The position numbers and the translations under genes are program-made. The notes below the pieces were generated by a model. The model ran no database searches and was not told where the DNA came from. It saw nothing but the letters and a program-made list of their open reading frames with translations. 64,000 bases of DNA, from positions 1 through 64,000 of the IMG/VR virus record IMGVR_UViG_3300005265_000001; one strand, given 5' to 3'. Numbering within the stretch: position 1 is the first letter of the stretch; every line of letters starts with the position of its first letter. Of the stretch, positions 12,299 through 29,182 are shown piece by piece. The stretch is from a virus.

Positions 12299-12376
12299 GG
12301 TGTGGTAGTTCTAACTGGTTAGAACACCGGCCCGTCACGTCGGGGGTTGCGGGTTCGAGTCCCGTCCGCACCGCCA
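12299..12376 (+). tRNA. tRNA-Asp(GTC)
   Basis: acceptor GGTGTGG/CCGCACC, G73, arm CCGGC-CCGTCAC-GTCGG, CCA. Confidence 0.93.
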
Positions 12377-24783: not shown

Positions 24784-24858
24784 TCCACGGTAGTTCAGGG
24801 GTAGAACAGGCGACCGATAATTGTCATGCCGAAGGTTCAAATCCTTCCCGTGGAACCA
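24784..24858 (+). tRNA. tRNA-Ile(GAT)
   Basis: acceptor TCCACGG/CCGTGGA, arm GGCGA-CCGATAA-TTGTC, ACCA. Confidence 0.88.
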
Positions 24859-24877
24859 AAAATTAAGGGGTTATAAA

Positions 24878-25192
24878 TTGACAAAAAGTGAAAGAGAAAT
24901 TTTTTTGAAAGCAATTGATGTTTTTGGGAGTGGAAATCAAGTTATTATGGTTATGGAAGAAATGAATGAATTGGGAAAGGAACTTTGCAAAACATTTAGG
25001 GAAAGTGGCGCACCGATAGATAACATTTGTGAAGAAATTGCGGATGTTGAAATTATGTTAGATCAACTAAAATTGATTGTTGGAGAAAAGAATGTAACAT
25101 ATTATCGTAAAAAGAAAATAAAAAGACTCAAAGAGCGGTTAGATACTTATGATAAATCAATGAAAATTGCAAAGAAAATGCAGGATATTTAA
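24878..25192 (+). CDS. MazG-like NTP pyrophosphohydrolase
   Basis: MEEMNELGKELCK...ICEEIADVEIMLDQL; TTG start after GGGG, downstream of tRNA-Ile. Confidence 0.8.
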   Translation: MTKSEREIFLKAIDVFGSGNQVIMVMEEMNELGKELCKTFRESGAPIDNICEEIADVEIMLDQLKLIVGEKNVTYYRKKKIKRLKERLDTYDKSMKIAKKMQDI

Positions 25193-25194
25193 AA

Positions 25195-25569
25195 ATGAAT
25201 CTTGATTATTTGTTAATTATTATTTGGTTACATTTTTTTGCGGATTTTCTTTTTCAATATGATAGAATGGCAATTGAAAAAGGTCATAATTGGAAGTATC
25301 TATTTTTTCATGGTGAGATTTATACAGCAACTTTTTTACTTTTTAATCCCATTTATGCGGTTGTAAATGGAATTTTACATATTGTGGTCGATTTTGCAAC
25401 TTCAAAACTTATAACTTATTTTTCCACAAATAATCAAAGACATTGGTTTTTTGTGACAATTGGAATGGATCAAGCCATTCATTTCACTTGTTTAATTATG
25501 TCTTTTTTCATTTTGAATATAATTTATCCAAACATTCAATGGCTATTTTTTCTAAAATATTTTGGGTAG
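25195..25569 (+). CDS. DUF3307-like membrane protein (second copy)
   Basis: HFFADFLFQ, HGEIY, HIVVDF, DQAIH. Confidence 0.8.
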   Translation: MNLDYLLIIIWLHFFADFLFQYDRMAIEKGHNWKYLFFHGEIYTATFLLFNPIYAVVNGILHIVVDFATSKLITYFSTNNQRHWFFVTIGMDQAIHFTCLIMSFFILNIIYPNIQWLFFLKYFG

Positions 25570-25572
25570 AGG

Positions 25573-25601
25573 TTGATTTTTTGAAAAAAGTGTGGTATAA
25601 C
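25573..25601 (+). promoter_or_regulatory. sigma70-type promoter of the RNA + TerD-like cassette
   Basis: TTGATT-17 bp-TATAAC with TG extension; RNA unit 1 begins 14 nt downstream. Confidence 0.7.
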
Positions 25602-25614
25602 ATATACATGATTA

Positions 25615-25682
25615 ATTGACAAAAGGAAAAGTTACTTAAACCAACAGGCCAACACCCTGTTTTTGATCACTTTTCCGTCAAT
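25615..25682 (+). ncRNA. structured RNA unit 1 with anticodon-like hairpin (loop CC-AAC-AC)
   Basis: ATTGAC/GTCAAT stem, AAAA bulge, GGAAAAGT/ACTTTTCC stem, TACTT, inner AACAGG-CCAACAC-CCTGTT. Confidence 0.7.
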
Positions 25683-25710
25683 ACTAAAAAATTGAAGAGG
25701 ATAAGAATTA

Positions 25711-25773
25711 ATGGCAAAAGAATGAGTTACTTAAAAAATGAATCTGTTAAATTCAAATTTACTCATTCGCCAT
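25711..25773 (+). ncRNA. structured RNA unit 2 with tRNA-Asn-type loop (CT-GTT-AA)
   Basis: ATGGC/GCCAT stem, AAAA bulge, GAATGAGT/ACTCATTC stem, TACTT, inner TGAAT-CTGTTAA-ATTCA. Confidence 0.75.
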
Positions 25774-25819
25774 ATAAAAATGGAGGTGTTTAAAATGCAC
25801 TAAAACATAAAAGGGTTTC

Positions 25820-25882
25820 TTGACAGCAGGGGAAGTTACTTTTTTAAGATTATTTGGAAATCGCCTTTTACTTCCCCGTCAA
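25820..25882 (+). ncRNA. structured RNA unit 3 with anticodon-like hairpin (loop AT-TTG-GA)
   Basis: TTGAC/GTCAA stem, AGCA bulge, GGGGAAGT/ACTTCCCC stem, TACTT, inner GATT-ATTTGGA-AATC. Confidence 0.7.
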
Positions 25883-25912
25883 TTTCAACCTTAAACTCAA
25901 TGGAGTGTCAAA

Positions 25913-27994
25913 ATGACTTATGATGATTTTGTTGTTGAATTTGGTAGAACAAATAAAATTGGGGTTTTGTTATCTAACAAAAATATTAACAAAAATCCTG
26001 AAAAGTTTTTTATGTTTCTTTTGAAACTTGGTTTTATTCCTTCCAAACAGTTTTTAGAAAAAGCACCACGTATCAAAAATTTGAATAAAATTCTTGATTT
26101 TTTCATTGCATACAAAAAACAAGATAAAAATTGGCAAAATACACTTTTTGGGGATTACGAAAATGTAGTTGGTAAGGTTCCCGATGTTGTTTTGCGAATT
26201 GAAACTCTTTTACACTATTTTACAACTTATGGTGCTGAATTTCTTGAAATGGATATTCCAACTTATTTTCCTAATGAACAAACAAAAATTGGAAAAAGGG
26301 AAATCAAGAAATTTTTAAAAGAAATTGATGTTTCAAAAAATGATATGTCAAATTTTTTGATTGTGGATATTGAGGCACCACATATTTTACGTCAAATTGT
26401 GGTTGAAAAATTGGTTTACACTAATACTCCATTAACTGAAATGGAAATGGAATATTTGAAAAAAAGATTGATTGATGCAAAAGGTATTGAATTTGATGTT
26501 AATCGTATTAGATTTAGTGAGGTTAAGACTCTTGTTTTGGATAGTGGAAATCAGAATATCAAAAATTTGGAGTATTTTGATGTTCTGAGATGGGCATGTT
26601 ACAAAATTACTGATAAACCAATTCTATTAAATTCAAAAGATTTGGATAAAATGGCAGATTTTATTAGTGATGATATAAAAAACACTTTTTGGAAGTTATT
26701 GGGTGTAGTAAATTATGATAAAATTTCAAAGGGCTATAAACAAAAAAGAAAATTATCCAATAAAATTTTTCAAATAATGGCAATTAAAGAGTTTAAAAAT
26801 AAATATGATGCGGCTAAATTTGCCAAAACGTTGAAAAATGGAAATGCGGGTATTAAAAGGGTTCAAACAGATTATGCAATTTTTTCAAGGTTAATGAAAA
26901 AAGATAGAAAAAGAGCAATTGAATTGTATCCACATATTGCCTTGGAAAAATATAATCAATTTAATTGGACATTGAAAGATACAGTGTATCTAATGGAACA
27001 TTTATCAACAAAATTACAATTGAGACTTTTTAATGTTATTCGTATGAGTGAAGAAATGTATGATTTTGGTGTTTATAAATTACCTAATGGTAAAATCTAT
27101 GTAAGAGATGATATTTTAACAAAAACACCAAAATTCAAAACTTATGCAAATAAATTTTGGGATGTAATTTTGAAGAATAAACCAACTGTTAGAGTAAATA
27201 TTTCACCTGAATTGAGGGAATACGTTGAAAATGTTGTGAATATGAAAATTCCTTTGACTGTTAGGGATGTTGGCGATGGTTTGGAATTTGAAAGAGGGTC
27301 CTATATTACCTTGAAATATGGTGAACGTTACAATGTTGGGGTTTATTGGAAAAATCAAAAAGGACATAGAATTGACTTGGATTTGGCTTTTAGATATTAT
27401 GATAAGGATTTTTCAAGTTCTAATGTAATAGGTTGGAATGGGTCTTATGGAAGTGGTGATGGATTAGATATTAAATTTTCAGGTGATATTACGGATGCAC
27501 CCAAAGGGGCGGCGGAATTTATTAGTTTTACAAATGTAAATGAACCTTTGTTTGGTATTTTTGCGGTGAACTGGTTCAATAGTGGTTACAGTAATAAAAT
27601 GAAAGTTAGATTTGATTTGTTTATTAATGAAAAAAGAAATATGAGGGGCCATGTAAATCCAGCAACTTCACTATTTTTCAATACAAGGTTTTTGGATAGA
27701 GAAAATTCCTATGTTTCTTTGGGGATTATGGATTTTGAAAGGGGTTGGTTTTTTCCTGTGAGTGGCAATATGAATTTACGTCCCGGATCAAGTTTAAAGA
27801 ATATGAGTGGAACAAGTTTTATAATTCGCACAATGATTGAAAAAGAATATAGAAAAGTTGATTGTAATGAATTTTTTCAATCAGCGGTTAAACGTAAGAA
27901 AATTGAATTGGTAAATGATACTGAAAATGTTGATTATACGATTAAAGATATTAATCAATTCAAGAATTTTGTTGTAGAGTATTTGGGGTTGTAA
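25913..27994 (+). CDS. large helical (possibly TROVE/ROT-like) protein with C-terminal TerD-like domain
   Basis: N-terminal LLHYFTTYG motif, long helical basic middle, C-terminal ERGS...GVYWKN...RIDLDL...IGWNG...FSGDITDAPKGAAEFI. Confidence 0.7.
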   Translation: MTYDDFVVEFGRTNKIGVLLSNKNINKNPEKFFMFLLKLGFIPSKQFLEKAPRIKNLNKILDFFIAYKKQDKNWQNTLFGDYENVVGKVPDVVLRIETLLHYFTTYGAEFLEMDIPTYFPNEQTKIGKREIKKFLKEIDVSKNDMSNFLIVDIEAPHILRQIVVEKLVYTNTPLTEMEMEYLKKRLIDAKGIEFDVNRIRFSEVKTLVLDSGNQNIKNLEYFDVLRWACYKITDKPILLNSKDLDKMADFISDDIKNTFWKLLGVVNYDKISKGYKQKRKLSNKIFQIMAIKEFKNKYDAAKFAKTLKNGNAGIKRVQTDYAIFSRLMKKDRKRAIELYPHIALEKYNQFNWTLKDTVYLMEHLSTKLQLRLFNVIRMSEEMYDFGVYKLPNGKIYVRDDILTKTPKFKTYANKFWDVILKNKPTVRVNISPELREYVENVVNMKIPLTVRDVGDGLEFERGSYITLKYGERYNVGVYWKNQKGHRIDLDLAFRYYDKDFSSSNVIGWNGSYGSGDGLDIKFSGDITDAPKGAAEFISFTNVNEPLFGIFAVNWFNSGYSNKMKVRFDLFINEKRNMRGHVNPATSLFFNTRFLDRENSYVSLGIMDFERGWFFPVSGNMNLRPGSSLKNMSGTSFIIRTMIEKEYRKVDCNEFFQSAVKRKKIELVNDTENVDYTIKDINQFKNFVVEYLGL

Positions 27995-28005
27995 TTTGTG
28001 AATTT

Positions 28006-28034
28006 GGGGGGGCGTCGTTCCCCCCCTTTCCTTT
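28006..28034 (+). terminator. intrinsic terminator
   Basis: GGGGGGG-CGTCGTT-CCCCCCC followed by TTTCCTTT, 11 nt after the stop. Confidence 0.75.
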
Positions 28035-28069
28035 ATATTATTTTCAAAAAATAATGGGGCATTGATAAT

Positions 28070-28564
28070 ATGAAAGGAACTCACAAGTATTTATCCAAAA
28101 AACGTGTTGGGCATAGATGGATTTACAAATACAAAAAAGTCGAAGGCAAAAACAGAGATAATGATGATGATTTGTCTTCAAATTCTGTGAAAACTGAAAT
28201 AAACACTAAAATAAAAAATATAGTTAATTCCAAACTAATTGATAAAACTAAAAGAAAAAGGATAAAAGCACTTATTGATAATGTCAAACATGATATTAAA
28301 ATTGCGAGTGAAGCCATTCATAAATATAATGAACTTAAAGGTTATGGATATAATGATGGGGAAATTCAAAACAAATTAAAAGATTATTTTAAGAATTTTG
28401 AAACAGACCATTTTGCCGATTTGTATATGACACATTCAAATATAAATGAGGCCATAAAAAAATATGATAGTATGGTTGGGGAAATCAAAACCTATATAGG
28501 AAAATTAGATGATTTTATTGGGAATCCTACAAATAATCCTAATAGGATTTTGATATTCTTTTGA
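28070..28564 (+). CDS. HKY-leader protein, unknown helical C-domain
   Basis: THKYLSKKRVGHRWIYKYK. Confidence 0.75.
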   Translation: MKGTHKYLSKKRVGHRWIYKYKKVEGKNRDNDDDLSSNSVKTEINTKIKNIVNSKLIDKTKRKRIKALIDNVKHDIKIASEAIHKYNELKGYGYNDGEIQNKLKDYFKNFETDHFADLYMTHSNINEAIKKYDSMVGEIKTYIGKLDDFIGNPTNNPNRILIFF

Positions 28565-29106: not shown

Positions 29107-29182
29107 CGGGGTGTGGCGCAGTTGGTAGCGCACTTGGCCTGGGACCAAGATGTCGGAGGTTCGAGCCCTTCCACCCCGACCA
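29107..29182 (+). tRNA. tRNA-Pro(TGG)
   Basis: C1:G72 acceptor CGGGGTG/CACCCCG, arm CTTGG-CCTGGGA-CCAAG, ACCA. Confidence 0.93.

Follow-up and report, generated by a model that had tools for sequence, protein, structure and literature searches.

What is the use, to a virus, of an array of small structured RNAs encoded directly before the gene of a large helical protein? The question is raised by a cassette in the 64,000-nucleotide stretch of DNA analysed here (positions 1 to 64,000 of IMG/VR virus record IMGVR_UViG_3300005265_000001, referred to as the window), in which three RNA units are followed by an open reading frame (ORF) of 693 codons. Each RNA unit consists of a constant stem, called the handle, that encloses a variable insert, and the product of the ORF is referred to as the partner protein. 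The interpretation that we consider probable, though well short of certain, is that the cassette encodes a two-part ribonucleoprotein (RNP) that follows the plan of Ro60 and Y RNA and is built from different parts.

A handle RNA that accompanies a single gene

Viral loci (n = 56) were fetched around homologues of the ORF at 25913-27994, and a covariance model built from the three window units alone, a check that a preliminary description of the window had proposed, yields matches that lie nearly all on the gene strand and just 5' of the homologue. Of the 56 loci, 54 have at least one handle that adjoins the homologue and shares its strand. The canonical handle, NNGGC-AUA-RRNNGU-UCCUAUU...insert...U-ACNNYY-C-GCCNN, is composed of a 5-bp basal stem, a 3-nt 5' bulge, a 6-bp stem that ends in a G-C and a U-A pair, the sequence UCCU, and a 3' bulged C. 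A stricter descriptor of this structure finds 107 matches, as opposed to 4.4 per shuffle, while with a broader one the plus strand yields 148 and the minus strand 7. The longest handle arrays, in L026 and L047, comprise six or seven units, the last unit ends approximately 10-30 nt before the start codon in many loci, and copies are also present 3' of the gene in L005, L041, L058, L067 and the cyanophage S-CRM01. The association extends to metagenome-assembled genomes, where handles adjoin the gene in about 24 of 30 loci that carry labels from Bacillota, Myxococcota and Chloroflexota to Asgard archaea.

The structure is supported by covariation. In 72 short canonical units, 9 of the 11 pairs are altered on both sides (209 cells), and the covariation score of 0.716 compares with 0.219 after shuffling and with no more than 0.19 once the pairing partners are shifted against each other. 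The handle stems also contain G-U and U-G pairs, an indication that the folding molecule is plus-strand RNA rather than DNA. When the ORFs of 79 loci were clustered, the sole protein family in common was the partner protein; one further cluster proved to be an antisense artefact within the partner gene, and neither RtcB nor another repair gene was seen as a conserved neighbour in this 79-locus sample. RNA array and gene are hence the only conserved partners, and the description of the cassette as self-contained holds. Since a conserved stem follows one basic helical protein across distant viruses, with nothing else conserved, the simplest account is that the protein binds the bulged stem.

Two cultured cyanophages carry the pair, S-CRM01 (g174) and S-CBWM1 (gp22), in both of which the gene lies amid a tRNA array and is annotated as hypothetical. 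S-CRM01 has four handles upstream of the gene and one downstream, with scores of up to 55 bits, and S-CBWM1 has one, directly upstream. More generally, tRNA genes are found within 4 kb of the gene in about 10 of 49 non-redundant viral loci, in addition to the window. As an aside on annotation, the 48-aa antisense hypothetical protein g173c of S-CRM01 (L122:2291-2437) overlaps the handles at 2248-2306, 2316-2377 and 2389-2468, and is probably a mis-annotation.

The link between the window and this family was also examined from the opposite direction. Model R2, which was built from relatives only, without the window units, recognises units 2 and 3 as its two best matches in the 105.9-kb record (18 bits, E 0.03, and 16.5 bits, respectively), with unit 1 not reported in this search. 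This reciprocal test ties the window subtype to the family, and the window units are a divergent subtype of a widespread handle RNA family. The subtype is distinguished by a 4-nt bulge, an 8-bp stem, UACUU instead of UCCU, and the lack of the 3' bulged C. The most divergent handle, that of the window, is paired with the most divergent protein (19-23% identity), and this rare subtype, with its joint change of handle and protein, could be useful for mapping their contact. No second lineage of the subtype was found: viral contigs yielded no P0002-like locus, and a metagenome scan for the subfamily of the window gave distant members only. A 14-base pattern of the window-type handle was encountered in 35 viral stretches; model R1 fits none of them, and these were discarded as chance matches.

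Architecture of the cassette in the window

From 5' to 3', the cassette is composed of a promoter-like site, the three RNA units, a GGAG motif, the 693-codon ORF and a terminator, with the following features:

25574-25601, plus strand: candidate sigma-70-like promoter (TTGATT, 16 nt, extended -10 TGgTATAAC), recognised by eye as a consensus match only
25616-25681, plus strand: handle RNA unit 1, from sequence, minimum free energy (MFE) fold and its own covariance model
25711-25773, plus strand: handle RNA unit 2, from sequence, MFE fold and covariance model R2
25820-25882, plus strand: handle RNA unit 3, from sequence, MFE fold and covariance model R2
25902-25905, plus strand: Shine-Dalgarno-like GGAG, 7 nt 5' of the ATG, read from the sequence
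25913-27994, plus strand: ORF of the partner protein, 693 aa, from the ORF list
25913-27298, plus strand: basic alpha-helical N-terminal part of the partner protein, residues 1-462, with the motif HYxTTYGxE at residues 101-109
27308-27832, plus strand: TerD-fold domain of the partner protein, residues 466-640, from the motifs RIDLDLS...GW...SGDxTDAPxGAxE and a structure match
27833-27994, plus strand: C-terminal helices of the partner protein, residues 641-693, and stop codon, from the ORF and the AlphaFold model
28006-28036, plus strand: intrinsic terminator, a 7-bp G/C stem at 28006-28026 followed by a T-rich tail, from a terminator scan

All sequence features of the preliminary description are present at the positions that it gave. 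The terminator that it had placed at 28006 was recovered by the scan (28006-28026 and a T tract). The promoter, which it had placed at 25573-25601, can be seen by eye at 25574-25601 but amounts to a consensus match with no excess over shuffles; the candidate is not listed by a consensus scan, since its -10 hexamer ends in C. The ribosome-binding site of the window lies outside unit 3. A single transcript that starts at the promoter-like site (25574) and stops at the terminator (28006) would probably contain the three handle RNAs and the mRNA of the 693-aa protein.

The outer stems of the three units differ in sequence and agree in architecture. The basal stem is UUGAC/GUCAA in units 1 and 3 and AUGGC/GCCAU in unit 2, and the bulge is AAAA in units 1 and 2 and AGCA in unit 3. 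The 8-bp stem that follows reads GGAAAAGU/ACUUUUCC in unit 1, GAAUGAGU/ACUCAUUC in unit 2 and GGGGAAGU/ACUUCCCC in unit 3, and each unit continues into GUUACUU. Comparison of the three units shows that 6 of the 13 outer pairs are altered on both sides and that none is broken, and MFE folds recover both outer stems in each, with z values of -4.5, -2.6 and -1.9 for units 1, 2 and 3; unit 1 has an MFE of -19.9 and scores 75.5 bits in the model built from the window units themselves. The segment AGU-UACUU is identical in all three, and the invariance that had been claimed for TACTT is true of the window subtype but not of the family, whose consensus is UCCU.

The inner hairpins are less uniform than the preliminary description had proposed, with its 7-nt loop in every unit. 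The hairpin of unit 1 (AACAGG-CCAACAC-CCUGUU) is the only solid one, that of unit 2 (UGAAU-CUGUUAA-AUUCA, 5 bp) is a weak A/U stem, and the 4-bp stem of unit 3 (GAUU-AUUUGGA-AAUC), whose insert has the recurrent UUGGA motif, is doubtful because the MFE fold prefers another pairing. Among the window units only unit 2 has a canonical loop, CUGUUAA, which is the anticodon loop of tRNA-Asn(GUU) and corresponds to the CTGTTAA of real phage tRNA-Asn genes; the CCAACAC loop of unit 1 has its CC...AC frame in common with the tRNA-Asp loop of this same phage. Neither the sequence nor an Rfam scan reveals a T/D-arm tRNA-like domain in the three window units.

Close strains provide a further view of these loops. 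A strain approximately 97-98% identical to the window over 25400-28100 is represented by contigs of three sequencing runs from a 2025 study, and the listed differences within the array, at 25650, 25651, 25668, 25739, 25747, 25827 and 25828 (65 further differences exist), fall in loops, bulges and linkers and spare the outer stems. In unit 1, the loop reads CGGACAC in the close strains and is thus unconstrained as an anticodon loop, and the change at 25668 (C>U) brings back the family consensus U before AC. In unit 2 the loop becomes CUGCUAA, with CU...AA retained, and the change at 25739 abolishes the basal pair of the inner stem. Of the anticodon loops proposed for the window, that of unit 2 is canonical, while the loop of unit 1 varies in strains and the hairpin of unit 3 is doubtful.

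Variable inserts and their tRNA-derived modules

The inserts that the handle encloses fall into several classes, which were counted on 125 regular units. Short, weakly structured A/U-rich inserts make up 69 of these and stable hairpins, frequently capped by GNRA or UUCG, a further 26; a T arm, a D arm or both are recognised in 16 (with a tRNA-like domain in 10 to 16), and 14 have a hairpin with a seven-base CU...AA loop. Anticodon-loop display, which had been regarded as a conserved feature of the units, is thus confined to a minority of them. The expectation that loop triplets would be enriched for real anticodon loops was borne out: CU...AA 7-nt loops on stems of at least 4 bp occur 18 times in the inserts of the family, versus 0.53 in composition-matched shuffles. 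The loops seen are CUUUUAA, CUGUUAA, CUGCUAA, CUGAUAA, CUUAAAA and CUUGAAA, letter-identical to real tRNA-Lys, Asn, Ser, Ile, Leu and Ser loops in the same phage set. CUUUUAA, the tRNA-Lys(UUU) loop, is found in six units on stems that differ and covary, and because these stems compensate differently, selection on the loop is indicated rather than recent copying.

Other inserts contain larger tRNA portions. The best match of the Rfam YrlA model in relatives (L045:2641-2752) reaches 49.5 bits and E 4e-8, compared with a gathering score of 69, and the YrlA matches cover the tRNA-like T/D part rather than the handle. These matches are sub-threshold but significant, since the T arm, hairpin and D arm sit inside the handle. 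In L056:2641-2758 (IMGVR_UViG_3300028888_000083), a complete tRNA-Met(CAU) with an encoded CCA lies between the handle halves, so that the scaffold can carry a whole tRNA.

Within the short inserts, UUGG/UGGA is enriched (11 versus 2.3 expected). UUGG(A) is present in the short inserts of about 20 units, for example L012:222-296, L017:2307-2357 and L122:4329-4380, and in the window at 25857-25861; the motif may represent a D-loop-like GG. A pairing of the handle UCCU with the GGA of the insert was considered and dropped, as window unit 3 keeps UUGGA despite its UACU handle.

The partner protein

Homologues of the partner protein are abundant: a word-indexed search returned 19, with E between 1e-16 and 2e-63, and a full search with the profile brought up 2,785 clusters at the 50% identity level (E<=0.001), 1,217 of them at E<=1e-30. 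Invariant motifs of the family are HYxTTYGxE in the N-terminal part and, in the TerD domain, DLD and SGD...E, with the invariant residues D488, D490, D525 and E535. The only close relative of the window protein is P0002, at 34% identity. The N-terminal part is basic, with an isoelectric point of 9.5 in the window and a family median of 9.1, and the TerD part is usually acidic. Structural models display a helical N-terminal part of approximately 400-460 residues and a beta-sandwich; the mean predicted local distance difference test (pLDDT) score is 72 for the AlphaFold model of the window protein and 83 for the N-terminal part of a canonical member.

The C-terminal domain, as modelled, has the TerD fold that the preliminary description had assigned to it. 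Residues 466-640 match 2qz7_B with Z 10.8 (root-mean-square deviation, rmsd, 3.6; 149 aligned residues) and 2kxt with Z 9.5 in VIA-align, and Foldseek matches this part to 3ibz with E 3.9e-5 and a probability of 1.0. The N-terminal fold resembles, in the ESM Atlas, that of the MXAN_6230/SCO0854 Prok-RING_4 cluster, with a TM score of 0.60 over 415 aligned residues, and the corresponding NCBIfam model NF041916 gives a weak, partial match (30.8 bits, E 8e-8, residues 445-539 only, versus a cut-off of 600). This agrees with the Prok-RING_4-like architecture suggested earlier. The earlier remark that a RING finger is lacking also stands, as the window protein has two Cys in its 693 residues and no match to PF14447.

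The protein was otherwise silent in sequence databases. At E<=1, Pfam offers no family for the 693-aa protein, including TerD (PF02342), TROVE and PF14447; PHROG contains no match; the family profile finds nothing at E<=10 among PDB sequences, and Foldseek finds nothing significant in the PDB for the N-terminal model. A blastn search of the region against 50,697 phage records gave no match, and tblastn of the window protein gave a short TerD-region match, in S-CBWM1 only. Taken together with the RNA, no model for either handle or protein exists in Rfam 15, Pfam, PHROGs or NCBIfam, which is in accordance with the novelty that had been proposed for the RNA, and a full-text search of the literature found no description. 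A family of about 2,800 clusters (50% identity), undescribed in Pfam, PHROG and the literature searched, thus travels with an RNA family that is absent from Rfam.

Comparison with Ro60, Y RNA and other known systems

Y RNAs carry Ro-binding motifs near their 5' end, GNCGAAN0-1G in bacteria and GGUCCGA in vertebrates (PMC4201824). A phage Ro60 binds Y-like RNAs that are encoded upstream of it (PMC12135203), the Y RNAs Yrl1 and Yrl2 have been described in the Thermus phage phiLo (PMC12135203), and YrlA mimics tRNA (PMC4201824). The cassette resembles this system in several respects. As for Ro60 (Rsr; TROVE and vWA), genes for small RNAs directly adjoin that of a large helical protein whose body ends in a domain of metal-binding type; as in Y RNA, a bulged terminal stem is combined with a variable internal module; in some relatives this module is the same T-arm, hairpin and D-arm tRNA mimic as in YrlA, within the same stem; and both systems are present in large phages (PMC4201824, PMC12135203, PMC7824862). 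The Ro60/Y RNA plan that had been invoked for the window thus finds a parallel.

Other features set the two apart. The C-terminal domain of the partner protein is TerD and not a vWA domain with a metal site, and TROVE is detected neither by hidden Markov model (HMM) nor by profile-profile comparison; the Pfam TROVE model (PF05731) has no match in the whole 105.9-kb record, while control genomes match. The handle motif is GGC-AUA-RRNNGU-UCCU instead of GNCGAAN0-1G, its arrays extend to seven units, and anticodon arms, whole tRNAs and plain hairpins are found among its payloads as well. Neither Y RNA (RF00019) nor YrlA (RF02553) has an Rfam match at E<=10 in window 25000-28500, and the bacterial and vertebrate Ro-binding motifs are absent, the window having UUGACAAAAGG or AUGGCAAAAGA and the family GGCAUARG at this place, a likeness that is loose and judged by eye. 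Membership in the Ro60 and Y RNA families, as judged from sequence, fails every test, and by analogy the best reading is that the pair works like Ro60/Y RNA without being a member of the Ro60 family. The pair gives the impression that the Ro60/Y-RNA design has arisen a second time, independently.

Three other systems invite comparison. The predicted N-terminal fold of the partner protein is similar to that of the MXAN_6230/SCO0854 RING proteins (NF041916; Prok-RING_4, PF14447), whose HMM gives its weak, partial match where the TerD-like region begins, but the protein has no RING and remains far below the 600-bit cut-off. With the TerD family (PF02342) it shares the fold and the conserved acidic residues in DLD and SGD...E; in contrast to that family, the Pfam HMM is silent, TerD is fused to a helical part of 460 residues, and no other ter genes are nearby. 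Finally, as with the phage tRNAs that evade or neutralise anticodon nucleases, anticodon loops are phage-encoded, often in tRNA arrays, and tRNA-Lys(UUU) is recurrent; unlike those tRNAs, the handle loops are mounted on a non-tRNA scaffold that cannot be aminoacylated, and are accompanied by a dedicated protein.

A possible RNP and its alternatives

In the proposed mechanism, the handle RNAs would be made and processed, and the constant handle (basal stem, bulge, upper stem ending in G-C/U-A, GUU(A/C)CU...U-AC loop) would serve as a docking site to which the partner protein binds. The variable insert would be the payload, and across the family it is in many cases derived from tRNA, in the form of T and D arms, of an anticodon stem-loop or of the entire molecule. 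Since the payloads are tRNA-derived and the context is that of tRNA arrays, proteins that recognise tRNA are suggested as targets, and the particle would engage nucleases or modification or repair enzymes, which would be tethered to the partner protein or titrated. A more specific proposal, which we advance only tentatively and hold to have rather less than an even chance, is that of a phage RNP of modular design: a single constant handle would place exchangeable portions of tRNA (anticodon arms, T/D elbows, whole tRNAs) on a TerD-helical protein, and host enzymes of tRNA attack or processing would thereby be intercepted or diverted. Its evolution would have been independent of Ro60/Y RNA. Such a system, if real, would constitute a widespread RNA-based counter-defence or tRNA-care device in bacterial and archaeal viruses. 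If the particle forms, it would also define a new class of viral non-coding RNAs, give a function to a very common hypothetical protein, and offer a direct handle on how large phages manage and protect their tRNAs. The cultured Synechococcus phages S-CRM01 and S-CBWM1 make bench testing possible.

Several observations weigh against a trans-acting particle on the Ro60 plan, or limit what may be drawn from the data. More than half of the units have short inserts with no evident tRNA feature, and tRNA mimicry is therefore not the whole story. The 72 units used for covariation were chosen for pairing, which renders the figure of 100% paired circular, although not the variety of pair types, and the co-divergence of handle and protein is seen in one lineage only. 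The promoter of the window has the status of a consensus match, such matches being as frequent in shuffles as in the window, and the window units belong to the 5' leader, which no terminator separates from the gene, and this leaves room for a purely cis role. The likeness to Ro60 itself, whose fold is a HEAT-repeat toroid, is one of fold, and weak. In VIA-align, 9l5y_B matches with Z 6.0 (rmsd 5.8, 266 aligned), in a Z range common for helical repeats, followed by 1yvp_A (Z 5.8, rmsd 6.4, 255 aligned), 2nvo_A (Z 5.2, 164 aligned) and a further match of 9l5y_B (Z 6.3 over 64), and in favour of a likeness the three Ro60 representatives all rank among the best 50 of 48,161 chains, aligned over long stretches; the span of Z 5.2 to 6.3 is nevertheless that expected for unrelated helical repeats. 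Profile comparison by hhalign of A4 and A5 with 25 Ro60 proteins (Bxz1 Ro and relatives, an alignment of limited diversity at 55-77% identity) gives a probability of 0.1% and E of about 0.5. The term TROVE-like, which had been applied to the protein, thus finds no backing in sequence, Pfam HMM or hhalign, and is left with a fold resemblance at Z 5-6.

Among the other explanations, the closest to the RNP is a special case of it, in which anticodon stem-loops presented by the protein act as decoys that inhibit host anticodon nucleases (PrrC, RloC, the AriB of PARIS, VapC-type toxins) and spare tRNAs during infection. We regard this as rather unlikely. The enrichment of real anticodon loops, their identity to tRNA loops and the six tRNA-Lys(UUU) loops with different stems all speak for it, as does the Asn loop of window unit 2, whose strain variant keeps CU...AA; the C33 that replaces U33 in the tRNA-Asp, Ile and Pro of the phage would fit pressure from a loop-directed nuclease. 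There is precedent for phage tRNAs that counter nucleases of this kind (PMC11464382, PMC12409363), an example being the tRNA-Lys of T5 against PARIS (PMC11464382). Decoys would nevertheless account for a minority of the family, in which 14 of 125 units have such a loop, as opposed to 69 that are short and weakly structured and 26 that are plain tetraloop hairpins, and within the window the loop of unit 1 is not kept in close strains and the hairpin of unit 3 is doubtful.

A purely cis-regulatory leader, in which the handles would be 5' untranslated region operators for the translation of the protein itself or for the stability of its mRNA, with no function in trans, appears less probable still. 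It draws on the single promoter-like site before the array in the window, on the position of the only terminator after the gene, and on the short distance from the last unit to the start codon in many loci; yet an operator has no need of T/D-arm domains or a whole tRNA, and arrays of up to seven units, copies downstream of the gene and a window ribosome-binding site outside unit 3 fit it poorly. Autoregulation, moreover, is also compatible with the RNP model. The idea that the units are degenerate tRNA-derived repeats, or punctuation or processing signals of tRNA arrays, linked to the gene merely by a shared tRNA region, is highly improbable. It could explain why gene and units lie in or beside tRNA arrays in the window, in the one-fifth or so of viral loci mentioned above and in both cyanophages, and why some inserts are tRNA parts, but at most of the loci where the pair occurs no tRNA lies within 4 kb, and the handle is not tRNA-like, is conserved with covariation, and accompanies the gene from Bacillota to archaea. 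The two-part RNP thus remains the reading that we favour.

Genomic context

The window is part of an IMG/VR record of 105,897 bp from a marine sediment sample, with a CheckV completeness estimate of 58%. The record is A+T-rich, its genes are almost all on the plus strand, and it contains nine tRNA genes. Directly upstream of the cassette, an ORF for a membrane protein ends at 25569. For the genes that follow the terminator (28070-28564 and beyond), no connection with the cassette was seen.

Position 33 is U in nearly all tRNAs. In this phage, tRNA-Asp, Ile and Pro (window 12299-12376, 24784-24858 and 29107-29182) have C33, with the loops CCGUCAC, CCGAUAA and CCUGGGA, and the remaining six of the nine have U33. 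An ORF for a MazG-like nucleoside triphosphate pyrophosphohydrolase (window 24821-25192, listed with a TTG start) overlaps the tRNA-Ile at 24784-24858, and its real start is probably farther downstream.

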